Shown: piece after piece, positions 1-13,499 of the stretch
Layout: each line of letters opens with the position of its first letter
Position numbering within the stretch: position 1 is the stretch's first letter
IMG/VR virus record: IMGVR_UViG_3300027833_000038
Reading direction: 5' to 3' (one strand)
Source of the DNA: an uncultured virus (IMG/VR IMGVR_UViG_3300027833_000038)
Lineage: Duplodnaviria; Heunggongvirae; Uroviricota; Caudoviricetes; Crassvirales
DNA: 20,000 nt
Notes under the pieces: model-generated
Seen by the model: only the letters and a program-made list of their open reading frames with translations
What the model was told of the DNA's origin: nothing
Databases searched by the model: none
Translations under genes and position numbers: made by a program

Positions 1-440
1 CTCTGTGTAACAGAACTTTACTTTGTTCCCCTAGAAAAGGAATGAAAGACAAGCTGAATAGAGACGTAAAAAAAAGAGAGTCTTTTAGACCCTTTGCTCC
101 TGTGTGCAGAAAAGAAGACGCACACATTTGGTTTGAACACGGAGAATATACTGACTACATGAGTCACAATGCAACCGTACATAATGTTGTGGATGATATA
201 GCTTCTGTTATACATGAAGACTATACAGCAAGACTACAAACAGTAACTTCTGAATCTAATCCCTTCATGTACTTACTACTTACTAGAATGAAAGAGCTAG
301 GACACCCTCCTGTACTTATAAACACTTCGTTTAATTTAATGGGAAAACCAATTTTAAATAGCTGGAAAGAAGCATTTGAGCTAAGGGATGGTGGTGGAAT
401 TCACTCTATAACCGATGGAACAAATAGAATATTATCATGA
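1..440 (+). CDS. Carbamoyltransferase (NodU/CmcH/TobZ family), C-terminal domain; 5'-truncated by the window edge
   Basis: The frame is open from nt 3 (LCNRTLLCSPRKG-MKDKLN), so the ATG at 42 is internal. Motifs LCNRTLL (canonical ALGNRSIL), KRESFRPFAPV, TARLQTV and PVLINTSFNLMGKPI match the Carbam_trans_C domain. Confidence 0.9.
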   Translation, partial: LCNRTLLCSPRKGMKDKLNRDVKKRESFRPFAPVCRKEDAHIWFEHGEYTDYMSHNATVHNVVDDIASVIHEDYTARLQTVTSESNPFMYLLLTRMKELGHPPVLINTSFNLMGKPILNSWKEAFELRDGGGIHSITDGTNRILS

Positions 441-1291
441 AAAGAATATTTATAAGCATATCCTCATATAGGGACCCAGACCTTATTAATACAATAGACG
501 ATGCACTAATGAAAGCATCCATTCCCGAAAGAATTGGCTTTGGAGTTGTTTTTCAGGGAACTAGAAACGAGTTCTTAGAGTTCCTGCCAAAAACTAATAA
601 CAAATTAGTATATATAAAACACGTTGAGATTGAAGATTCAAAGGGAACAGGATGGGCTAGAAACCTCATAACTAAAACTATGTTAGAGACTGAAGACTAT
701 TTTCTTCAAATAGATTCCCACACTAGATTTAAAAAAAACTGGGATGTTGAACTAATATCTTTTTATGAATCAATCGGAGAAGAGTGTATGGTTTCTGCGT
801 ACCCTCCTCACTTTGGAAGAAATGAAACGTATGAAGTTTACTCAAAAAGAAACTTAAATAATCATGCTATAGTTGTAGGCTTTACAGAAATGTACTCATT
901 TAAAGACACTAAGGGTCGTATTCCAGAAGAAGACTATGAAGATTCTATAACTGCTGCTGGAGCTTTTCAGTTTTGCTCAAACGAGGTGGCTAAGTCATTG
1001 ACCTTTGAAGAATACTTTAATCCATGGATGGACCAAGAAATTTCTTCTTGCCTTGCATATATGGGTGGTTACAATATATATGCTCCTAAAGATGCTTTTG
1101 TTTGGCATTGTTATGCAGATAATCATATAGGTTCAGACGAAAAATGGAGACCTCTTATTGCTGATGACAGAATTATATCAGATTTTGACAGGTATCCTTT
1201 TGAAACAATAAAGACTTGGAAAAGAAATAGGTCTTTTGAAGATTGGAAAAATAGAGTTCAAGAGGATATTAATTTAATTAAAGATTGGTAA
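437..1291 (+). CDS. GT-A glycosyltransferase, GT60 / Skp1-hydroxyproline GlcNAc-transferase-like (Pfam GlcNAc)
   Basis: Motifs IFISISSYRDPDLINTI, GTGWARN, YFLQIDSHTRFKKNWD (DxH), SAYP, AGAFQF and VWHCY. ATGA overlap with the upstream gene. Confidence 0.8.
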   Translation: MKRIFISISSYRDPDLINTIDDALMKASIPERIGFGVVFQGTRNEFLEFLPKTNNKLVYIKHVEIEDSKGTGWARNLITKTMLETEDYFLQIDSHTRFKKNWDVELISFYESIGEECMVSAYPPHFGRNETYEVYSKRNLNNHAIVVGFTEMYSFKDTKGRIPEEDYEDSITAAGAFQFCSNEVAKSLTFEEYFNPWMDQEISSCLAYMGGYNIYAPKDAFVWHCYADNHIGSDEKWRPLIADDRIISDFDRYPFETIKTWKRNRSFEDWKNRVQEDINLIKDW

Positions 1292-2271
1292 TGATAAAAA
1301 CAGCTTTAGTATTAGGAGGAGGAGGATTTATAGGTTCTCATTTAGTTAAAAGATTAAAAGAAGAGGGCTACTTTGTTAGGGCAGTAGATTTAAAAAAACC
1401 CGAATTTTGGAAAAGTTATGCTGACGAATTTATTGTAGGAGACTTAAGAAATCCTCAAATAACTAATTCAGCATTTTCTCATTTAGAGGAAAAAACTTAT
1501 TTCGATGAAGTTTACCAACTTGCTGCTGACATGGGAGGAGCTGGATATTTATTTACAGGAGACAGTGATGCAGATATAATGCACAACTCTGGTTTGATAA
1601 ATCTAAACGTTCTTCATGCTGCTAATGAAAAAGGATGCGGAAAGCTTTTTTACGCAAGTAGTGCTTGTGTATATCCTGAGTACAATCAAATAGACCCCGA
1701 AAGCCCCAAGTGTACAGAAGACAGTGTTTATCCAGCAGAACCAGATTCTGAGTATGGATGGGAGAAACTGTTTAGTGAAAGAATGTACATGGCTTTTGCA
1801 AGAAACAAAGAAATAAACGTAAGAATAGCTAGATTTCACGGCATATTTGGTCCTTACGGAACTTGGAATGACGGAAAAGAAAAAGCTCCTGCTGCAATAT
1901 GCAGAAAAGTTGCAGAATCAAAAGACAGTATTGAAATCTGGGGAGACGGAGAACAGACTCGTTCTTTTATGTATATAGATGATGCTGTAGAAACAATTAG
2001 AAGATTTATGATGAACGATGACTTTCAAGGTCCAATGAACATAGGCTCTGAAGAGATGGTTACTATCAATCAATATGCGGACATGGTAATGTCTGTAGCT
2101 GATAAATATTTAGATATAGTTCATATAGAAGGACCCCAAGGAGTTAGAGGAAGAAACTCAGATAACACCTTAATGGAAGAGAAACTTGGATGGACTCCAG
2201 ACGGTTCTTTAATAGACGGAATACATAAAACTTATCAGTGGATTGAGAAGCAAGTGCAAAAAACGTCCTAA
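1291..2271 (+). CDS. GDP-mannose 3,5-epimerase-like NAD-dependent epimerase (extended SDR)
   Basis: GGGGFIG Rossmann motif, LAADMGG, SSACVYP (catalytic Cys), YGWEK (YxxxK), EKAPAAICRK (catalytic Lys), WGDGEQTRSF and GVRGRNSDN. The start is placed at ATG 1291 (TAATG overlap with the upstream stop) rather than TTG 1285. Confidence 0.9.
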   Translation: MIKTALVLGGGGFIGSHLVKRLKEEGYFVRAVDLKKPEFWKSYADEFIVGDLRNPQITNSAFSHLEEKTYFDEVYQLAADMGGAGYLFTGDSDADIMHNSGLINLNVLHAANEKGCGKLFYASSACVYPEYNQIDPESPKCTEDSVYPAEPDSEYGWEKLFSERMYMAFARNKEINVRIARFHGIFGPYGTWNDGKEKAPAAICRKVAESKDSIEIWGDGEQTRSFMYIDDAVETIRRFMMNDDFQGPMNIGSEEMVTINQYADMVMSVADKYLDIVHIEGPQGVRGRNSDNTLMEEKLGWTPDGSLIDGIHKTYQWIEKQVQKTS

Positions 2272-3042: not shown

Positions 3043-3462
3043 ATGAAATTAAAATTAAGAAGATTAGAGGAGTCTGATTACGACACCTTAGTTACTTGGT
3101 GGAAAGATTGGAAGTGGGAAGCCCCACCTAGAGACTTTTTACCAGAAAACGGAACTGGAGGCTTTATGGTCTCTAACAATGATAGTGATATTTGTGCAGG
3201 TTTTATATATCTTACAAATTCAAAAATTGCTTGGATTGAGTTTATAATTTCTGATAAGCAATACAAAGAAGAGGATAGGAATGAAGCTATTCAATTCTTA
3301 ATAAACAGTTTGTCTAGTGTAGCCGAAGAAACGGGTGCTAAATATGGATACGCTATTTTAAAAAATAAAAGTCTCATGAAGTATTATGAGGAAGCTAATT
3401 TTACAGTAACAAGTGATAAAAACACTGAAATGATAACAATATGGCAGCAGCAACAACAGTAG
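3043..3462 (+). CDS. GNAT-fold protein of the virion morphogenesis module
   Basis: LRRLEESDY N-terminus, ICAGFIYLT..AWIEFIISD and NKSLMKYYEEANF fit a GNAT topology. The position between tail and ejection genes is typical of podoviruses. Confidence 0.65.
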   Translation: MKLKLRRLEESDYDTLVTWWKDWKWEAPPRDFLPENGTGGFMVSNNDSDICAGFIYLTNSKIAWIEFIISDKQYKEEDRNEAIQFLINSLSSVAEETGAKYGYAILKNKSLMKYYEEANFTVTSDKNTEMITIWQQQQQ

Positions 3463-4019
3463 CTTTAGTAGGCGCAGGAGTAGGACTTTTAGCAGGAGGA
3501 GCGCAAGCAGTCTCTGGTGCAGTTCGTTCTAAAAGAGCAAAAAGAGATTTAGAAAATTACGAAAGACAAGAGGTTACCGACTTGGCAGACAACTTGCGTG
3601 TATCTACCCTAGGGGCAGAGCAGCAACAAGAAGGTCTTGCTCAAAGCGAGTCTACAGCAATAGAAGCCTTACAATCTTCTGGAGCTCGTGGAGTTATAGG
3701 GGGTGTTTCTAAAGTTCAGAAGAACAGAGCTCAAGCTGAACAAGGAATTGCAGCAGGATTAGACCAGCAAATGACTAATATACAGCAAATACAATATCAA
3801 GATAAGGTAAGACAGTTTAACACTACCGAAGGCAGACAAAACCAAGAAATAGCTGGAATGGCTGCTGAGATGCAGGCAGGAAGAGCTGCTGTACAGAACG
3901 GGCTAGGAACAATGGCTGGTGCTGTTACTTCTGGAGCTTCGTCTTATGCTTCAGCAGCAGGAGTTAAAGGAGCAGCCAAGCCGTTTACGGGAGGTAACAC
4001 ACTTTTTAAAGATTCATAA
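3441..4019 (+). CDS. Probable small ejection (internal virion) protein
   Basis: Gly/Ala-rich hydrophobic N-terminus, Gln/Ala-rich helical middle and Gly/Ala-rich C-terminus. First of three genes of increasing size, as in T7 gp14-16 and P22 gp7/20/16. Confidence 0.65.
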   Translation: MAAATTVALVGAGVGLLAGGAQAVSGAVRSKRAKRDLENYERQEVTDLADNLRVSTLGAEQQQEGLAQSESTAIEALQSSGARGVIGGVSKVQKNRAQAEQGIAAGLDQQMTNIQQIQYQDKVRQFNTTEGRQNQEIAGMAAEMQAGRAAVQNGLGTMAGAVTSGASSYASAAGVKGAAKPFTGGNTLFKDS

Positions 4020-4028
4020 ACAATAATT

Positions 4029-5453
4029 ATGGCAAAAGGAGCATACTATGCAGGAATGGCTACAGCGCCTCAAGTAAAGCCAGCGGATTTTTTAACTCCA
4101 CTGACAAACATGTTTGAGAGGCTTACCCAGCAAAGCATAAACAGGAGAAAAGAACAACAGGCTGCTGAAAAGGAAAACGCTAAGTTTTCTTTAAGTCAGC
4201 AAGGACGATTAGAGGATGTAGTTAATTCTACTAGCTTTAAAGGTTTTGGTATAGACCAGCTTGATATGGCTTCAAAGTCATACACTGGATATGTAGACGA
4301 GAATTTTAAAAAAGCAAACGCTGATTTCAATGCAGGTCTTATAAGTAAAAGCCAGTTAAGCTCTATTACTGCTAACCTAATGAACTCATCAAGGTCAGTT
4401 CAGAATTTAGGAAACAGTATTAATGGGTTTATGCAAACAAACTCAAAGCTTGAAATGGAGGGAAAGGATTCTCACTATAACGATTTAGTTATGAGTTTTA
4501 TAGGAGACCTAGGAAACAATGTAAGGTTTGACACAAATTCTTCTGGAGGCATTTCTTTAATTACAGTTGGAGAAGATGGCGTAGAAAAAAAACTTCCAGC
4601 AAATCAAATTAAAAACTTTCTACAACCTAGAGCAGCTACAGATATGGATGCAGTTTTAGAAGACATTGTTACACAATCAAAGCCAAATCAATATGATTTA
4701 GGTGGTTCTATAGGTTTTAGATATTTAGAAAATGGAAGCATAACTCAAAATCAATCAAACCAATTAACCAAAAGACTTTTAAATTTTTCTCCCGAAGAAA
4801 TATACGATGCATCTGTAAGAGCAGGAATAGTGGGAGACAATGAAGGTCAAATTAATGTGTTAACTGATTTTGCAAATGAAGGAGAAATAACAGAAGCAAA
4901 TCTCGATTCAATGAGACAAAGGCTTGGACTTTATGCTGCCGAAAGTTTAACTGAAAAATTCCAAAATGCAGAGTCTAATGTAGCTAAAAAGGTATCAGTT
5001 ACAAAGCCCACTTCTTATGCTAATTTTGATAACAATACAGGAACGTATTCTTACAAAAAAGGAGCACAAACTTCTGTTTTAATTCGGTCTGGATTTACAG
5101 GAAATGATATGGTAAATGATTCTCCTACGGGAAAGACAAACGATGTTCCTCCAAATTCTTATGTTTCTGACGTTAGACTAACTCCTTATGGTTTAGAAGT
5201 ATGGGGTGTTCAGATAGTAAACAAAAAAACTGGAAACATTATGGATTTAATGAATGCTTCTAGTCTTTCTGATTTAGAGGTAGAATCTGCTGGAGGAACT
5301 AGAAAAAACTTTCACAAAGTAATAGACCCTAATAGCAATGGAGTGGCTATTTCTCAATTACAAAGAGTATTTGGATTTAGCACCGATGACTATAAAAACA
5401 CCTTAGATTTAGATATTACAACAGCACCCCCTAAAGGGAAATACGACAAATAG
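4029..5453 (+). CDS. Probable middle ejection (internal virion) protein
   Basis: 474-aa ORF with a coiled-coil-like N-terminus (RRKEQQAAEKENAK) and no Cys. The call rests on synteny; no enzymatic motif recognised. Confidence 0.5.
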   Translation: MAKGAYYAGMATAPQVKPADFLTPLTNMFERLTQQSINRRKEQQAAEKENAKFSLSQQGRLEDVVNSTSFKGFGIDQLDMASKSYTGYVDENFKKANADFNAGLISKSQLSSITANLMNSSRSVQNLGNSINGFMQTNSKLEMEGKDSHYNDLVMSFIGDLGNNVRFDTNSSGGISLITVGEDGVEKKLPANQIKNFLQPRAATDMDAVLEDIVTQSKPNQYDLGGSIGFRYLENGSITQNQSNQLTKRLLNFSPEEIYDASVRAGIVGDNEGQINVLTDFANEGEITEANLDSMRQRLGLYAAESLTEKFQNAESNVAKKVSVTKPTSYANFDNNTGTYSYKKGAQTSVLIRSGFTGNDMVNDSPTGKTNDVPPNSYVSDVRLTPYGLEVWGVQIVNKKTGNIMDLMNASSLSDLEVESAGGTRKNFHKVIDPNSNGVAISQLQRVFGFSTDDYKNTLDLDITTAPPKGKYDK

Positions 5454-5454
5454 T

Positions 5455-8400
5455 ATGGATAATGTTGAAGAGTTATATAACGGTCTGATAGAAGACGGAA
5501 GTCTAACAGCAGAAAATACTTCTTTAGAAAAATTTAGAGTAGACTTACAAGATGAGGGGTATGCTGAAGAGCTATATAATGGACTTTATGACTCTAAGGA
5601 TTACACTTTAGATTACGGTAGTTTTGTTGAGACTTATTCTACACCAAAAAACATAGACCCTCTTGATACTAAAGCCGATACTGGAGATAAGCCTAATATA
5701 ATGTTGCAGGATTTCTCTTTATCTGATGAACTTTTTAATGATAGTGAGGAAGTTAAGTCTCAGTTTAGAACTTTTTATAACTGGCAAGGTAAACTTGAAG
5801 TTGAAGAGGATAAAGATGGTCAGTTTTTAAAAGGAGCCTTTGGCGAGTTTATCAACATGATGCCTATGGGCGATTGGATTGACGACCAAGCTAGAGCTTT
5901 TAGTTCTGGAAGGGAAGATGTTGATGTGCAGGAAACTGGAAATGAAATAATGAATCAGCATTTTGCAGGAAACAAAATAAGCGTTGACCAAGCAAACGAA
6001 ATGCTTAAACAGCTATATGAAAGTCAAAGTACTCCTCGCTCTCAGGAAGTTGAAAACTTTGAAAATATTTTGGTTGAAAATGGTATGGACGGTTTTGCTG
6101 CTGTAAAAGCTATATATGAAGAGCCTAGCGCTGCAATGGAATATGTTACTCGAAGCATATCATCCATGATTAACTGGGATAATGCTGGAGTTGCGGCAGC
6201 TACTATGGGCACTATGACTGCTGGAGGTGCAATGATAGGGGGTCCTGTTGGAGCTTTATCTGGATTTTTAACATCAATACCTGCTGCTATGGCTGCTGCT
6301 GGAGCCAATACCGATATGGGTATGTCTTACGCTAATTTTTTTGCAGAAGAACTTGGAGAAGACTATACTAGAGAAGATTTAAAAGCTCTTATAGAAGACC
6401 AAGACAGAATGGATAACATAGAGAACAAGGCGTTAGCTAGAGGTGTTTCGATTGCTGCTGTTTCAGCTTTTACAGCAGGCATAGGGGCTAATGTAGCTGC
6501 TAATGTTTTTAGAAACGGAAGAAGAGGTATTAGAGCAAGTGCAGAAGCTTTTGCTAGAGTAACTCCTTTATCTATGGCTGGCGGAGCTACTGGAGAAGCT
6601 TTAGCTCAAACTACTTCAGGTCAAGATTTTAGCGGAGCAGAGGTTGTTTTAGAGGGACTTTTAGACCCTATCGGAAGCATTGGAACTACTATAGGTGGTT
6701 TTGGACAAGCTATAGCTTCTGCACCATCTTACAAAATAAACGGAGGTGGTACTACAAAAGCAGAGTTCATTAGGAGATTTAATTCAATGACTGACGAGCA
6801 AGCTAAAAGAGCTTCGTTTGAAGTAAACAATGATGAGGACACTTTCAGCGTAATAGATGACAGGTTAGGTTCTTTAAAAGTTAGAGAAGAAATTAAAAAA
6901 GTCTATGGAGACATGGACGAAGAGCAAATAACAAGATTAAGTAGCTTAGAAGCAGAAAAGAAAAAAGTTTCAAAGCTTAATTCTGAGACAGCTAAAAAAA
7001 GAGCAGCAGAAATAAACCAGGAAATTGATGAGGTTGTAAACATTTATAAAACAAAAAGAGATGTTATTGGTGTTTTATCTGCTCCTTATTATGATTTAAA
7101 TATAACGAGTGTTGAGGATGCTCAATCTAAAAGAAAAACTAAAGAATACAAGTCATACATAAACAAGGCTAAAAGATTAGCTGAAACAATGAACCTAACG
7201 GTTTCAGATGTAAACGATGGCATTGGAGGTTACTTCCTAGATGATGGAACCTATCTTCAGGAATTATCTTCAGAGGTTTATTTAGAAGGCGCTACCTATG
7301 AGCAAGCTATCGAATATGCTTCTATTTTAGGAGCTATAACTCCTGAAACTCAAGAAAGCACTATAGCAGGTATGATAGTGGGTCCTGGAGAGGGAGATGC
7401 AGGTAAATTTACTTTTGCAATAGAAGATAATAGTGTACTAGAAGACGTTAGAAGTGCTCTTGATGAGCTTAAAATTGAGTATTCAATGAATACTGATACA
7501 GGGGAGATAGGAATTATTGACTTTTCTAATGGAGATGATGTTGAACTTAACGAAAAACTTGGTATCTTTGTAGAGGTACTGGAAAAAAACCAAATAAATC
7601 ATGAGCAAAAATCTGAGAGAATCCGTTCAAAGTATATTGGCGCAAAAGACAGGGCTGACAACTTACAACAAATTAAAGAATCTTCCGATAAGTACGGAAA
7701 GAATGGGGAAAGCATTCGTTACATCGCCGAAAAAGCAGAGCAAAGGAACGAAGAATACTTAGGAAATAAGACTCCTCCTCCTCCTGAAGAAACTCCAAGC
7801 CTAGAGCCAGTAGTTGTAAGAACTAATGTCAGAAAAATATATGACGCTTTAGGACAAAAGAAAGCCATCAAAAAAGTAAGAAGGTTTTTCTTAGAAACTT
7901 TTTATAGCGGTGGCGGATTAGATTCTAAATCCGAAGAAATAATAAGAGCCTTTAGAAGAAAAGGAACTGCAACGCAAAATTTCTTAAAAACAGAGTCAGC
8001 TATATTTGAGGCTCAATTTGAGTTGGACACAAAAAAAATGTCTACTTCAGATGCTATGCTTTACAAGACAGCAATAAACGACTATCTATCAGGAAAAACA
8101 GACATTGAACTTTCTCCAGAAATGAAACCAGTTCTTGATGAGATGCGTTCACAGATTGACCAAAGAACAAACATACTGTTAGGATTGCTAAAGGAAAAGG
8201 GTAGACCTGGACCTGAGCTTGACCAGTTAATAGAAACTTTAGAAAACAACAAAGGTTCTTATTTACATAGAGCATATTCTGCTTTTAAAGATTTAAGCTA
8301 CATGGAAGAGCTTCTTTCTGACCCATCAATGGCTCGTTCTGAAATAAATGAAACTTATGATTTGCTAGTTGCTGAGACAGCAATGGACCAAGGAATTACT

Positions 8401-10929
8401 GTTGATGAAGCAAAAGATTTAGTTGACCAATATATTGCGGACACCTTTAGTTCCCCAGACAGAGGAACTCATATAGCATCTTTGGCTGATGGAAAAATAT
8501 CTTCTCCATTTTTAAAAAAGAAAAATAAAAATCTTTCTGATACTTTTAGAAAATTCTTAGGGGAAATAGATGACCCTTTATTTAATTATGTAAACACAAT
8601 TGAGAAAGTTTCTGGATATGTTGCTTCTGTTGAATACCAATCAAAGCTTTCAGATTTTTTAAAAGAAAGTGGTATTGCTACAACCAAACCTAACAGAGAC
8701 TCGGGAAGAACAAATCAACTTCAACTAGGAGCAAAAGGTCTTAATGTATTAGATAAGCTTTACGTGGACCTAGACTTTATAGAAGCTTTTGAATCAATTC
8801 AAAGACTAGCTCCTATTGAGGGCTCTTTAAAATATTTAGTTGCAGCTCAAGGAATAACTAAATATGGTAAAACAATTTTGTCTCCTACTACAACGGCAAG
8901 AAACTACATTTCAGGTTCTTTAATAACCCTGATGAATGGAGAAAACATATTAAATCCAGCAAATTGGAAAAAGGCTTCTAGAGCAGCTAAGTTAGCTTGG
9001 AACAGTCCTAAGAATCCTAAAGAAATTAAAGCCGAAGTACAAAGACTTATAGAACATGGAGTCTTACAGGATGGAGGTAGAGCTCAGGAGGTAATGATGA
9101 TTCTTAATGATATATATGCACTAGAATCAAAAAGAAGAACAGACGGTTTAAGCACTGAGGGAATGAGAAAGTTTAATGATGCCGTGACTAAGATATATCA
9201 GTTCGGAGATGATTACTTTAAAACATTTGCTTTTTATGAAAAGAGAGATGCCTTTATGAGAGAGGGTATGTCTCTTGAAGAAGCCGAAGAAATAGCTGCC
9301 TACAGAGTAAGAAAAGGTCAACCAACTTACTCCGAGCTTCCAAAAAACATGAGGAGCTTGAGAAGATTTCCCCTTACAGGAACGTTTGTTTCATTCCCTT
9401 ATTTAATTACAAAAGCACATAAAGAAAACTTAATGTTTATTGCTGAAGATTTTAAAGCAGGAAGAACAAAAATGGCTGCAAAAAGTTTAGCTAATTATGC
9501 TGCATCTGTCGCTATACCATACGGAATTGCTGAGGGAATGAAATCGGCACTTGGAGTTTCTGACGAAGAGGATAAAGCTTTGAAAGACATGGCTCCAAAA
9601 TATTATAAAGATGCGCAGTTTATATATACATCAAAAGACGAAGAGACCAACGAGTTAACTTATTTTGATGTAAACTCAATAGCACCTTCAGCTCAAATAG
9701 TACAGGGATTAACTATATTGGCTCAAGACAGACATGGAAGAAATCTTTCAGACAAAATAGGAGAGTCAGTTATGTCTCAATTAAAGCCATACGTTAGTTT
9801 AGATTTATTAGTAAATACTGGAACTGCTGTTATGTCTGGTAAAGACCCTAACAGTGGTAAAAATATTGGAGAAGATACTTACGACAGATTAAAGTGGGGT
9901 GTAAATAACATATCTCCTGGAGTAGTAAGAAATTTAGCGAACATAGCACGTTCTCAAGGATGGTTCGAGTTAGATGAAATAAATAAATTTACAGGAAAGA
10001 AATATACTTTAGAAGATGAACTTGCAGCATTGCTTGGTCTTAGGTTTCAAACAACAAACTGGAATTTACAACTTCAGAGCTACGCAAAAGGTCAAAGCAT
10101 TGATTTTGCTAATGATGTTAAAGGTCAGCTCAGAGACGTAAAATCACAACAAAAAATTCCACTACAAGAGGTTAGTATGATTGTTTCTGATATGTACGAA
10201 AAAGATGCAGAGTACAGTGGTAATTTATTACATCAAATTGAAGTAGCTAGAAAACAAAATTTAACTGAATCTGAAATAGTTGACGCTTTGTCTGCTGCTG
10301 GAATAAGAGCTAATGATATAAACTCACTAATGAAGGGAGAGTTTATGGAGCTTAAAGGAATAGGAACTGAAGTATACAAGAAAGAGATAGAATCTTTAAG
10401 CAGTAGACCAGACCTAGCCGACAACATGAAAAGAAATTTAGATACTTATCAGTATTTAGTTGGAGAAAGAAATGCTGACGGTAGAGCAAAAACTGACTTA
10501 TATAAGCTATATGTTTCTGGAGCTGATGATACAGTTGTTTTAGATAGAATCAAAAAAGCTTCTAAAAACATTTACAAAAGAAGTAAAACTCAAATAGGTT
10601 TTGATGAAAATGCGTTTACTCAAAAAGATATTGCTGATGCGGAAAATGTCTCTGTAAAAAGATATTTTAATATATACAAAGGATATAAAACTTTAGGTGA
10701 GAGTCCTAAACTTAGCAACCTTCCCATAAGCGCTAAAGCTACTATTGATATGATTTATGAAAAAGACCCTGAAATACAGTCGTTTTTATTTCATAAATTT
10801 TTAGATGGAAAAACTGATGATAAATCTATAAACGGCTTAAACACATTGTACAAGTCTATAACAGGAAAAAATATGTCTAAGACAGTTCTTGAGTTACTTG
10901 TGTATAGAATCAAACAGGATAAAAAATAA
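5455..10929 (+). CDS. Large ejection / polyvalent virion protein (1824 aa)
   Basis: Acidic N-terminus and Gly/Ala-rich hydrophobic helices (about aa 245-420). An alpha/beta insert (about aa 537-730) precedes a PPPP linker. The helical C-terminal region GDDYFKTFAF..EAEEIAAYRVRKGQPTYSELP..FPLTGTFVSFPY is typical of large phage polyvalent/ejection proteins. Confidence 0.7.
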   Translation: MDNVEELYNGLIEDGSLTAENTSLEKFRVDLQDEGYAEELYNGLYDSKDYTLDYGSFVETYSTPKNIDPLDTKADTGDKPNIMLQDFSLSDELFNDSEEVKSQFRTFYNWQGKLEVEEDKDGQFLKGAFGEFINMMPMGDWIDDQARAFSSGREDVDVQETGNEIMNQHFAGNKISVDQANEMLKQLYESQSTPRSQEVENFENILVENGMDGFAAVKAIYEEPSAAMEYVTRSISSMINWDNAGVAAATMGTMTAGGAMIGGPVGALSGFLTSIPAAMAAAGANTDMGMSYANFFAEELGEDYTREDLKALIEDQDRMDNIENKALARGVSIAAVSAFTAGIGANVAANVFRNGRRGIRASAEAFARVTPLSMAGGATGEALAQTTSGQDFSGAEVVLEGLLDPIGSIGTTIGGFGQAIASAPSYKINGGGTTKAEFIRRFNSMTDEQAKRASFEVNNDEDTFSVIDDRLGSLKVREEIKKVYGDMDEEQITRLSSLEAEKKKVSKLNSETAKKRAAEINQEIDEVVNIYKTKRDVIGVLSAPYYDLNITSVEDAQSKRKTKEYKSYINKAKRLAETMNLTVSDVNDGIGGYFLDDGTYLQELSSEVYLEGATYEQAIEYASILGAITPETQESTIAGMIVGPGEGDAGKFTFAIEDNSVLEDVRSALDELKIEYSMNTDTGEIGIIDFSNGDDVELNEKLGIFVEVLEKNQINHEQKSERIRSKYIGAKDRADNLQQIKESSDKYGKNGESIRYIAEKAEQRNEEYLGNKTPPPPEETPSLEPVVVRTNVRKIYDALGQKKAIKKVRRFFLETFYSGGGLDSKSEEIIRAFRRKGTATQNFLKTESAIFEAQFELDTKKMSTSDAMLYKTAINDYLSGKTDIELSPEMKPVLDEMRSQIDQRTNILLGLLKEKGRPGPELDQLIETLENNKGSYLHRAYSAFKDLSYMEELLSDPSMARSEINETYDLLVAETAMDQGITVDEAKDLVDQYIADTFSSPDRGTHIASLADGKISSPFLKKKNKNLSDTFRKFLGEIDDPLFNYVNTIEKVSGYVASVEYQSKLSDFLKESGIATTKPNRDSGRTNQLQLGAKGLNVLDKLYVDLDFIEAFESIQRLAPIEGSLKYLVAAQGITKYGKTILSPTTTARNYISGSLITLMNGENILNPANWKKASRAAKLAWNSPKNPKEIKAEVQRLIEHGVLQDGGRAQEVMMILNDIYALESKRRTDGLSTEGMRKFNDAVTKIYQFGDDYFKTFAFYEKRDAFMREGMSLEEAEEIAAYRVRKGQPTYSELPKNMRSLRRFPLTGTFVSFPYLITKAHKENLMFIAEDFKAGRTKMAAKSLANYAASVAIPYGIAEGMKSALGVSDEEDKALKDMAPKYYKDAQFIYTSKDEETNELTYFDVNSIAPSAQIVQGLTILAQDRHGRNLSDKIGESVMSQLKPYVSLDLLVNTGTAVMSGKDPNSGKNIGEDTYDRLKWGVNNISPGVVRNLANIARSQGWFELDEINKFTGKKYTLEDELAALLGLRFQTTNWNLQLQSYAKGQSIDFANDVKGQLRDVKSQQKIPLQEVSMIVSDMYEKDAEYSGNLLHQIEVARKQNLTESEIVDALSAAGIRANDINSLMKGEFMELKGIGTEVYKKEIESLSSRPDLADNMKRNLDTYQYLVGERNADGRAKTDLYKLYVSGADDTVVLDRIKKASKNIYKRSKTQIGFDENAFTQKDIADAENVSVKRYFNIYKGYKTLGESPKLSNLPISAKATIDMIYEKDPEIQSFLFHKFLDGKTDDKSINGLNTLYKSITGKNMSKTVLELLVYRIKQDKK
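7541..7570 (+). promoter_or_regulatory. Putative internal Bacteroidota promoter TTG-N19-TAtcTTTG
   Basis: TTG at 7541-7543, a 19-nt spacer and TATCTTTG at 7563-7570, followed by an A-rich leader and ATG 7601. Confidence 0.5.
7601..7762 (+). CDS. Putative nested +1-frame ORF, 53 aa basic peptide (MSKNLRESVQSILAQKTGLTTYNKLKNLPISTERMGKAFVTSPKKQSKGTKNT)
   Basis: Manually translated from ATG 7601 to TAG 7760-7762. Leader aaaaaaaccaaataaatc has A at -3 and lies downstream of the promoter match. Host-frame codons here are unusually C/G-ending. Confidence 0.45.
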   Translation: MSKNLRESVQSILAQKTGLTTYNKLKNLPISTERMGKAFVTSPKKQSKGTKNT

Positions 10930-10962
10930 AAAAGCCTCACGGTGTTACGAATGAGGCTTTTT
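10928..10962. terminator. Bidirectional intrinsic terminator between the convergent arms
   Basis: aaaaaAGCCTCA-cggtgttacgaa-TGAGGCTtttt: a perfect stem with an A-tract before and a T-tract after, directly behind the stop at 10929. Confidence 0.85.
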
Positions 10963-11023
10963 ACACGTAATGAAAAAAATTAATAAAGGTTTATTAAAGT
11001 TCCACTTGTCAATCAATACAAAA

Positions 11024-11946: not shown

Positions 11947-12342
11947 TTAGTGTAGGCAACTCTTAAGTTTCTCTATATTATGTTTGTCTGCTATCTGAAT
12001 AAGAAACTCTTTAACTGACGCTTCATGGTTATGAGTTTTTGACTTCCTATAGATACTTGTTGTGCTGCAATTAATCATATTAATTATTTCAGAAGCATTC
12101 GTATTGTGCTCACAGTAAGCTACCCAACAGGGTCCATTAGTCTTTTCCCAAGAATCAGCTATTCTTTCAAACAAAAGTTTTTGACCTATAGGAACTGCAA
12201 CACCTTTCTTTTTTACCTCAAAGATTATAAGATATTTATTATCAAATTCAAGCAAAGCATCTAGGTCGCTAGGATGTATTTTTTCATTCCCAACTCCGCT
12301 AAAGTCTATAACCTGACTGATTCTGTTTTTATATTTTATCAA
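11947..12342 (-). CDS. PD-(D/E)XK-like phage protein
   Basis: HPSDLDALLEF..LIIFEVKK..GQKLLFERIADSW resembles a restriction-fold active site. The start is re-assigned to TTG 12342 (TTGA overlap with the upstream stop) instead of 12441. Confidence 0.55.
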   Translation of the reverse strand: MIKYKNRISQVIDFSGVGNEKIHPSDLDALLEFDNKYLIIFEVKKKGVAVPIGQKLLFERIADSWEKTNGPCWVAYCEHNTNASEIINMINCSTTSIYRKSKTHNHEASVKEFLIQIADKHNIEKLKSCLH

Positions 12343-13499
12343 AATGTGTGAGTTAATCTTGCAATCTGACCAAATTCGCTGTGATGTAAAAATCCTTCTA
12401 TAGCTCTTGGAGAATGTTGGTATCCTTTTATATGATGCCAACTGTCTGAAGAACTTGGAGACCTTAAGGATTCTAAAGTTACACCTGCGTAATCTTTTGA
12501 AGTCTTGTGGTGTACATGATGCGTATAAATGTATCTGTGCTTTGTGTCAGCCCACATATTTTTAGCCTCTGTAGCCATCAAAAGAGGTAAATCATTGTTC
12601 TTTGCACCATCTCCGTGAGTGGTTCCTATGAGGTTGTTGTTCCACTGATAATATTTTCTATGAGCAATACTATTATCAAACGTTATATTCTTACAGTCCT
12701 TGTACCAAGACTCTATGTTGTGAGCTAAGAAAAAACCATTTGTGTAATCATGGTTCGACGGGTTAAAAACAAAATGAACGTCTGCTTCAAGCAGCAATCT
12801 ATCTATGACAGTGATATACATTTCTTTTGCTTTTAGAAAGTTGTCGTACCACATTCCGTCTGTATCTTGACTGGTTCCTTTTCTTGTTTTTCTATCAGGA
12901 GTGTCAATATGAAGAACATCATTACCTGCAACAAATAATATTTTTTCTACATGAAAACCTTTAACCTTTTCAAGTATACCTGCAACGCCTTCATGTACTC
13001 TTTTGATGGCTATCTCCGTGTTATACTCTTCCCCCGTTTCATACGCTCTCGCAAGCTTCCCCACATGAATGTCAGCAGGGTCAACAACAAGAAGATGACG
13101 GTCTTCACTTTTTTCTTTATTTCTTTTAATTTCATATTTAAATGTATGTTTTTTTACAGAGTCGATATGGTCTTTTAACATGTCCTCAAACTTTGGACCT
13201 TTGTCGCTAGGAGAAAATGATATTGACCAGTTTTTACCCTTGTACCATGCCATTCTTATATCTTCAGGAGCAATACCTACTGTCTTTGCTTCCTCGTAAA
13301 GAGCAGGATTCTCTTCAGCAAGAATATTTTTTTGTATTTTTTTAGACAAATTTCTTCTAGCTGATTCTATTGTAAGTCCTTCTGGATTTCCTAATTCATC
13401 CAAAACCTTTCTAGCTATTTCGGTTTTATTCATGCCCTGCTTGTTCTTAGGAAAGTGCTTTTTTGCTCTTTCTAAGAAATCGTTCCAATCAATATTCAT
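12339..13499 (-). CDS. Calcineurin-like metallophosphoesterase with N-terminal helical/HTH-like extension
   Basis: Metal-binding motifs DPADIHVGK, GNDVLHID, PSNHD, THGD and HHVHH. Confidence 0.85.
   Translation of the reverse strand: MNIDWNDFLERAKKHFPKNKQGMNKTEIARKVLDELGNPEGLTIESARRNLSKKIQKNILAEENPALYEEAKTVGIAPEDIRMAWYKGKNWSISFSPSDKGPKFEDMLKDHIDSVKKHTFKYEIKRNKEKSEDRHLLVVDPADIHVGKLARAYETGEEYNTEIAIKRVHEGVAGILEKVKGFHVEKILFVAGNDVLHIDTPDRKTRKGTSQDTDGMWYDNFLKAKEMYITVIDRLLLEADVHFVFNPSNHDYTNGFFLAHNIESWYKDCKNITFDNSIAHRKYYQWNNNLIGTTHGDGAKNNDLPLLMATEAKNMWADTKHRYIYTHHVHHKTSKDYAGVTLESLRSPSSSDSWHHIKGYQHSPRAIEGFLHHSEFGQIARLTHTF

Follow-up and report, generated by a model that had tools for sequence, protein, structure and literature searches.

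The locus described here raises the question of whether an enzyme that destroys S-adenosylmethionine (SAM) has been built into a giant virion protein of a phage. SAM lyases (SAMases) are known as small, early-expressed phage proteins, and their families have diverged so far that no more than three residues are common to them. The DNA analysed, referred to as the window, is a 20,000-nucleotide stretch of an uncultured marine virus assigned to the Crassvirales (IMG/VR record IMGVR_UViG_3300027833_000038). It contains an open reading frame (ORF) of 1824 aa, here called the giant ORF (P0002; positions 5455..10929, + strand), which is the last gene of a block of virion genes on the + strand and in which amino acid n begins at nucleotide 5455+3(n-1). 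The original prediction was that aa ~537-640 of its product resemble the SAMase of phage T3. Positions 7063-7380 (+) translate without a stop codon, in frame in ORF 5455-10929, to the residues that had been quoted, and the numbering of Y593, E603 and Q633 agrees with this translation. We refer to this segment as D1 (aa 537-642; 7063..7380, + strand), and a divergent SAM-lyase-type cargo domain is the interpretation of it towards which we lean.

D1 is the first part of a conserved module of ~240 aa (aa 537-772), in which it is followed by a second ferredoxin-like domain, D2 (aa 649-729; 7399..7641, + strand), and then by two long helices (aa 730-772; 7642..7770, + strand). The region aa 500-800 was matched by 26 giant proteins, and the module is encoded at 64 IMG/VR loci. 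A D1 profile was made from alignment A3, the D1 columns of alignment A2, which contains the window and 50 of the 64 loci, the other 14 being near-duplicate or truncated. This profile found 249 protein clusters at E<=0.001 (clusters at 50% identity; 1.84 billion representatives searched). The set used to assess conservation consists of the window sequence and 142 of the best 150 of the 249 matches, 8 partial matches having been dropped and 99 lying outside this selection.

The strongest evidence for a possible relationship to the SAM lyases comes from the residues that these sequences retain. Only three columns, G591, E603 and Q633, are invariant in the 143 D1 sequences. Position 593 is aromatic in all 143 (Y 80, F 54, W 9), position 605 is S or T in 139 (S 121, T 18, A 4), position 634 is E or D in 137 (E 105, D 32, other 6) and position 635 is S or A in 133. 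The conservation of Y593, E603 and Q633 that had been expected in homologues is borne out, 593 being always aromatic and E603 and Q633 being present in 143/143. Among four active SAMases, only Gly56, Glu69 and Gln104 (Svi3-3 numbering) were reported to be strictly conserved (Guo et al. 2021, PMC7877911).

The D1 residues can be paired with those of the known enzymes as follows. G591-G592-Y593 (7225..7233, + strand), at the end of strand beta2, would be equivalent to Gly56 and Tyr58 of Svi3-3. E603-L-S605 (7261..7269, + strand), where beta3 begins immediately beyond the tip of the hairpin, would correspond to Glu69 and Ser71 of Svi3-3 and to Glu68 and Thr70 of T3 SAMase, and T3 Glu68 was itself equated with Svi3-3 Glu69 in PMC7877911. 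Q633-E634-S635 (7351..7359, + strand), in the alpha2-beta4 loop, would match Gln104-Glu105-Ser106 of Svi3-3 and Gln94-Asp95 of T3 SAMase. In Svi3-3, Tyr58 is reported to make a cation-pi contact with the sulfonium, with a loss of only fivefold activity in Y58F, Ser71 to contact the ribose, and the backbone of Glu105/Ser106 to hold the carboxylate (PMC7877911). When secondary structure was assigned to the D1 model (see below) with DSSP, the conserved residues were found at the same topological sites as the lyase residues. The structural alignment ranges also fit these pairings, given that the helix-1 region of D1 is ~10 residues longer.

These positions were combined in the pattern G.[YFW].{9,10}E.[ST].{23,32}Q[ED], which is found inside D1 in 102 of the 143 proteins and in 40 of 46 T3-family SAMases. 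Outside D1, the D1-bearing proteins contain it 6 times in 310,695 residues, and shuffled sequence yielded 39 occurrences in 6.2 million residues, or ~7e-4 per 113-aa domain. Judged from these counts, the occurrence of the motif in D1 is more than chance.

An AlphaFold2 (AF2) model of aa 526-775 (predicted local distance difference test, pLDDT, 87.5; predicted template modelling score, pTM, 0.86) consists of two ferredoxin-like domains and the two long helices, which have high pLDDT. D2 shares the beta-alpha-beta-beta-alpha-beta topology of D1. D1 modelled alone (pLDDT 82.7) is likewise ferredoxin-like, with a long beta2-beta3 hairpin in its core, and the ferredoxin-like core of the SAM-lyase-type fold that had been anticipated for D1 is present in the models. 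In an exhaustive comparison of the whole module with 48,161 PDB representatives using VIA-align, Svi3-3 (6zm9_A) was ranked 1 (Z 7.8, root-mean-square deviation 3.8, 114/129 residues), T3 SAMase (7ock_L) was ranked 6 (Z 6.8, 134/152 residues) and a SAM-AMP lyase (9gab_D) was ranked 15 (Z 5.2). Re-alignment of the best 999 Foldseek chains to the module placed 6zm9 at rank 1 (Z 7.8) and 7ock_J at rank 2 (Z 7.1, 131/149 residues). In BFVD, the best structural matches to the module were large polyvalent proteins of uncultured phages, and two annotated phage SAM hydrolases were found at ranks 37 and 47 (probabilities 0.97 and 0.93). T3 SAMase aligns over model residues 4-169 and, from the alignment ranges, its C-terminal part overlies the first half of D2. 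The lyases top the whole-module ranking because they also cover strands supplied by D2.

The 249 clusters are mostly giant phage polyvalent proteins. Of the 142 D1-bearing proteins, 115 are at least 1300 aa long, with lengths up to 4280 aa, and in these D1 lies at relative positions 0.02-0.77. D2 is found directly after D1 in 126 of the 142. The features by which polyvalent proteins are recognized were found: the phage protein is very large, has several domains and is encoded among virion genes, and across the family D1 varies in placement and is combined with unrelated effector domains. An ART-PolyVal domain is present in 2 of the 10 D1-bearing relatives scanned, and a weak LPD38 match was also found. 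No Pfam, PHROGs or NCBIfam family covers the module when D1, the module and its stand-alone homologues are searched, nor does a Pfam LPD model, and no copy of the module was detectable by BLAST in 50,697 GenBank phage records. The module was found on 5 contigs of metagenome-assembled genomes (MAGs), 4 in Bacteroidota bins and 1 in an Aliivibrio bin. PF23780, the Pfam family that includes T3 SAMase, had no match in any of 5 D1-bearing phage records, 4 of which are at least 90% complete, or in the record nearest to the phage of the window, an 11-kb fragment (G001). We regard it as somewhat probable that D1 is a very divergent SAM-lyase-type domain with a PII-like ferredoxin fold, lying in a two-domain module that is shuffled as cargo among giant polyvalent virion proteins.

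That the product of the giant ORF is a virion protein is well supported by homology. Its C-terminal region (aa 807-1671; 7873..10467, + strand) is homologous to gp123 of Cellulophaga phage phi18:3 (Pachyviridae), with 32% identity (tblastn, E 4e-103), and aa 923-1640 match phrog_22602, annotated as 'virion structural protein' (E 2.2e-114). According to its annotation, gp123 is a virion protein found by tandem mass spectrometry (MS/MS) proteomics, and its gene is also the last of its virion block. However, the cargo part is swapped, and because gp123 is without D1, the middle of the giant protein is exchangeable cargo on a conserved virion scaffold. The N-terminal conserved region (aa 139-535; 5869..7059, + strand) matches phrog_32588 (E 5.6e-19). 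With Pfam, no family was found in the 1824-aa ORF at E<=0.001, and no second enzymatic domain was identified in the giant protein of the window. The term 'ejection protein', used in the original prediction, would follow from the polyvalent-protein paradigm and is not an observation.

The analysis shows the fold of D1, its conservation, its distribution and the homology of its host to virion proteins; from these we infer the ligand and the catalysis, with Svi3-3 as the model, and the delivery. The pocket known from that enzyme would be formed by the beta2-beta3 hairpin and the alpha2-beta4 loop, with G591 leaving space for the ribose, aromatic position 593 stacked on the sulfonium, E603 and S605 gripping the amino group and the ribose hydroxyl, and Q633 together with the E634-S635 backbone gripping the amino acid end. 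SAM bound in this way would cyclize to homoserine lactone and 5'-methylthioadenosine (MTA). The second wall of the pocket, which in Svi3-3 comes from the neighbouring subunit, would be provided by D2 or by another copy of the protein. A two-domain solution for the pocket is plausible, given the differing oligomeric states of the known enzymes (Svi3-3 trimer, T3 dimer). Given the homology of the host protein to a virion protein verified by proteomics, we propose that D1 would accompany the DNA into the cell, or follow it closely, and would act on SAM-dependent defences, such as type I restriction-modification (R-M) and BREX, before phage genes are expressed.

However, a number of results, set out here and in the next two paragraphs, weigh against a SAM lyase. 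In sequence comparisons, BLASTP aligned D1 with T3 SAMase at E 0.2 and in the wrong register. PF23780 (gathering threshold 28 bits), with which T3 SAMase scores 143 bits (5.7e-42), had no match to D1 at E<=10, and D1 is for this reason not filed in that family. Profile comparisons of D1 with hhalign, in which the SAM-lyase side was the narrow T3 family only, gave probabilities of 0.1%, 7%, 1.6% and 3.2%, which are not significant, and in these alignments E603 falls 1-2 residues off T3 E68. The global alignment places GGY on T3 GCY and Q633-E634 on T3 Q94-D95, and the local score of 19.0 is higher than that of 196 of 200 column shuffles (4/200 reach the real score). Searches of PDB sequences with the module, A2 and A3 gave chance-level matches only. 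As a control, T3 SAMase was used as a phmmer query and did not find Svi3-3 in PDB at E<=10, so silence of HMMER is to be expected among true SAM lyases. This is in line with the description of SAM lyase similarity as 'barely detectable' (PMC7877911). The T3 pattern given in the original prediction is correct, the T3 gene 0.3 product (NC_003298) having VLVSAF, G55-C-Y57, E67-E68-K-T70, AQALNVARLAC and E93-Q94-D95, and the spacing is indeed close (Tyr to Glu, 11 residues in T3 SAMase vs 10 in the window; Glu to Gln, 26 vs 30). The wider claim of a SAM-lyase relationship is partly supported, by the fold, the conserved residues and the whole-module matches, but this support is indirect, and the sequence methods did not reveal a significant relationship.

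The structural results raise the alternative that D1-D2, as a tandem of ferredoxin-like domains, serves some other purpose in polyvalent virion proteins, such as ligand or protein binding (for example of another nucleotide or metabolite) or spacing in the structure, and that the match to the SAM-lyase triad is coincidental or convergent. For D1 alone, 356 chains had Z>=5 and 16 had Z>=8 (S6, ACT, NikR, MgtC-C and others), and none of these 16 is a SAM lyase. Judged from its model, D1 alone is a generic ferredoxin-like fold, with equally good resemblance to S6, ACT or PII. On the whole module, the porter domains of resistance-nodulation-division (RND) pumps tie with the lyases (Z 6.7-7.8), as do other tandem ferredoxin-like proteins, and all Z values are <8, the range in which, according to the warning of the tool, a common arrangement is possible. 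Foldseek searches of PDB with both models had no SAM lyase among the matches listed; those listed for the whole module were tandem ferredoxin-like proteins only, with poor TM-scores, and those for D1 alone were S6, GlnK/PII and CutA1. No usable match was obtained in the ESM Atlas. In addition, the counterparts of the D1 residues in the SAM lyases were assigned from topology and alignment ranges, not from residue-level superposition. A closer likeness to SAM lyases than to other ferredoxin-like proteins is suggested by the whole module, for which Svi3-3 and T3 SAMase rank first and second after re-alignment, but not by D1 alone, to which S6, ACT, NikR, PII and CutA-type folds are as close or closer. 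The structural comparison is compatible and suggestive, not decisive. Together with the lack of significant similarity to PF23780, these findings make a tandem module with another role the most credible of the alternatives. We nevertheless consider it unlikely. The sole three invariant residues of D1 are of exactly the types that are strictly conserved in SAM lyases, their order and topological sites agree, four accessory positions match as well, the chance rate of the motif is low, and two solved SAM lyases that are unrelated in sequence occupy the first two ranks for the whole module.

Two further points concern how D1 would work. Part of the Svi3-3 site is supplied by a neighbouring subunit. 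The turnover of Svi3-3 is given as 9.5 per second (PMC7877911), and at this rate it would take many minutes for a handful of injected copies to exhaust the cellular SAM pool, so fast bulk depletion of SAM is doubtful. The alternatives are local action, another substrate such as SAM-AMP, or a sensing role.

The second of these corresponds to a lyase of the same type acting on a SAM conjugate or another sulfonium, for example the type III CRISPR signal SAM-AMP, in which case D1 would be an injected anti-CRISPR like AcrIIIB4. The SAM-AMP lyase 9gab_D is the lyase that ranks best for D1 alone (rank 18, Z 7.8, 96 residues aligned; Svi3-3, rank 28, Z 7.6), SAM-AMP lyases are reported to have only the Glu and the Gln in common with the SAM lyase, and a phage fusion form is active (PMC12255297). 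However, the Gly-x-aromatic element and the Glu/Asp that follows the Gln, both described for SAM lyases, are retained in D1, and only E71 and Q108 were reported to be structurally conserved between the two enzyme types (PMC12255297). Svi3-3 and T3 SAMase also outscore 9gab on the whole module, and we view a SAM-AMP lyase as improbable. A role for D1 in binding SAM or a related ligand but not turning it over, whether as a sensor or switch of the giant protein (e.g. one that registers arrival in the cytoplasm) or as a stoichiometric sponge for SAM, is similarly improbable: PII-like folds are typically ligand sensors (PMC12255297), the kinetic argument speaks against bulk depletion by few injected molecules, and Svi3-3 E69Q still binds SAM, so binding and catalysis are separable (PMC7877911), but every catalysis-linked residue of Svi3-3, including the invariant Glu, is kept across 143 diverse sequences, and the lyase reaction is unimolecular and is described as requiring little beyond correct binding (PMC7877911).

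If D1 is read as a SAM-lyase-type domain, its closest counterpart is Svi3-3 (PDB 6ZM9, from an environmental phage), the best structural match for the whole module. Both have a ferredoxin-like fold with a long beta hairpin, and the Gly, aromatic, Glu-x-Ser and Gln-Glu-Ser elements of Svi3-3 have the same order and topological places as in D1. In contrast to D1, which is internal to an 1824-aa protein, has the longer helix-1 region and precedes D2, Svi3-3 is an independent protein of ~146 aa that assembles into a trimer, with its site at the subunit interface (PMC7877911). Sequence similarity between the two is undetectable. The T3 gp0.3 SAMase (PDB 7OCK; PF23780) has the elements G55-x-Y57, E68-x-T70 and Q94-D95, ordered as in D1 and similarly spaced. 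However, it is expressed early and freely, forms dimers and is reported to polymerize host MetK (PMC8406200), and neither a PF23780 score nor an hhalign probability above 7% links it to D1. The Clostridium botulinum SAM-AMP lyase (9GAB) and phage AcrIIIB4 share with D1 a PII-like fold, a Glu after the T-loop and a Gln in the B-loop, and AcrIIIB4 is also a fusion protein; they differ in that the substrate is SAM-AMP, the SAM-AMP lyases are small trimeric proteins, and a Gly-x-aromatic element is not among the features reported to be common (PMC12255297).

The polyvalent proteins of phages and conjugative elements (Iyer et al. 2017, PMC5512222) resemble the D1-bearing proteins in being giant, multidomain, encoded among virion genes and predicted to be packaged and delivered. 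The main text of PMC5512222 has no mention of SAMase, S-adenosylmethionine, SAM hydrolase, ferredoxin or PII, and our literature search found no description of a SAM lyase linked to polyvalent or ejection proteins. A precedent for delivery of a SAM-degrading enzyme with the particle is the SAM hydrolase ORF6 of cyanophage S-CREM2, which was detected in virions by mass spectrometry, but this is a separate protein of a T4-like myovirus and is annotated as a conventional SAM hydrolase (PMC10665884). D1 is set apart by forming a family that is invisible to PF23780, by its fixed two-domain module and by its location inside giant polyvalent proteins.

Counter-defence ahead of phage transcription is documented for cargo of the DarA/DarB, Alt and N4 virion RNA polymerase (vRNAP) types (PMC5512222), and for a SAM hydrolase it is hinted at by one virion proteome, that of S-CREM2 (PMC10665884). 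If D1 is active, whether counter-defence starts before phage transcription would become testable for this module. It would also represent a large new branch of SAM lyases found only in uncultured phages, and would show that giant virion cargo proteins can have the SAM lyase as one of their building blocks. The Gly-x-aromatic, Glu-x-Ser/Thr and Gln-Glu/Asp signature (G-x-aromatic, E-x-S/T, Q-E/D) would then serve to find further hidden members. A bolder and more tentative proposal, which we hold to be possible but rather doubtful, is that D1-D2 is an unrecognized, widespread family of SAM lyases (the 249 clusters at 50% identity) in which a degenerate D2 takes the place of the adjacent subunit, so that a single-chain enzyme can be inserted into giant injected polyvalent proteins. 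Many marine, mostly Bacteroidota-associated phages would in that case deliver the destruction of SAM, disarming SAM-dependent restriction, BREX or SAM-AMP signalling before their own genes are expressed.

Some additional features of the module and of the proteins that carry it were noted. D2 as a recognizable duplicate of D1 was not supported (hhalign probability 0.9%). At the same alpha2-beta4 site, D2 (7600-7641) has E-x-x-x-x-I-x-S-K/R-Y-I, a faint echo of P-E-x-Q-E-x-x-I-A-x-x-Y-V in D1 (7351-7380), which hints at an old internal duplication. S725 of D2 is invariant in the 51-sequence alignment. There are also stand-alone D1-D2 proteins, which begin with methionine and are 270-325 aa long. 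Two of these, P0173 and P0187, have a near-identical N-terminal peptide of ~17 residues, M-x-Y-D-P-x-E-P-R-D-E-x-G-R-W-T-D, ahead of the module, and this could be a packaging or processing tag. The ART-PolyVal ADP-ribosyltransferase domains that share a polypeptide with D1 are at aa 2445-2573 of P0097 and aa 2869-3000 of P0157. P0097 also contains DUF7178, and P0125 contains BspA-type leucine-rich repeats. Downstream of D1-D2, P0016 has a zincin-like H-E-F-G-H motif; Pfam gave this protein no family. An HExxH motif is absent from the giant protein of the window. In the window protein, hydropathy revealed Gly/Ala-rich hydrophobic segments at aa 264-283 (6244-6303) and aa 326-352 (6430-6510), within the phrog_32588 region, and comparable runs were seen in the D1-bearing proteins P0016 and P0027. 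These segments could be membrane-inserting. The Aliivibrio-labelled MAG locus (L068) is on a 3-kb contig from a gammaproteobacterial bin and may be due to misbinning or may point to a broader range of hosts.

The window consists of phage DNA. A + strand block in it starts with sugar-modifying genes, continues with virion genes and ends at the giant ORF, and it runs towards a - strand block of genes for replication and recombination. Among the virion genes, 3441..4019 (+ strand) encodes a homologue of phi18:3 gp120, an MS/MS-verified virion protein (phrog_13764; E 3e-14). The 474-aa ORF at 4029-5453 has no similarity to phi18:3 gp121, and synteny with gp121 is not supported. Directly upstream of the virion genes, 3-2271 (+) encodes the C-terminus of a Nol-like carbamoyltransferase, a glycosyltransferase and a nucleotide-sugar epimerase, and these sugar-chemistry genes may target DNA, the virion or the host surface for modification. 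Where the + strand virion block meets the convergent - strand replication block, only 94 bases (10930-11023) separate them. Within the - strand block, the ORFs at 11947-12441 and 12339-13499 share ~100 bases, and the true start of ORF 11947-12441 is probably elsewhere than at the listed ATG (12441).

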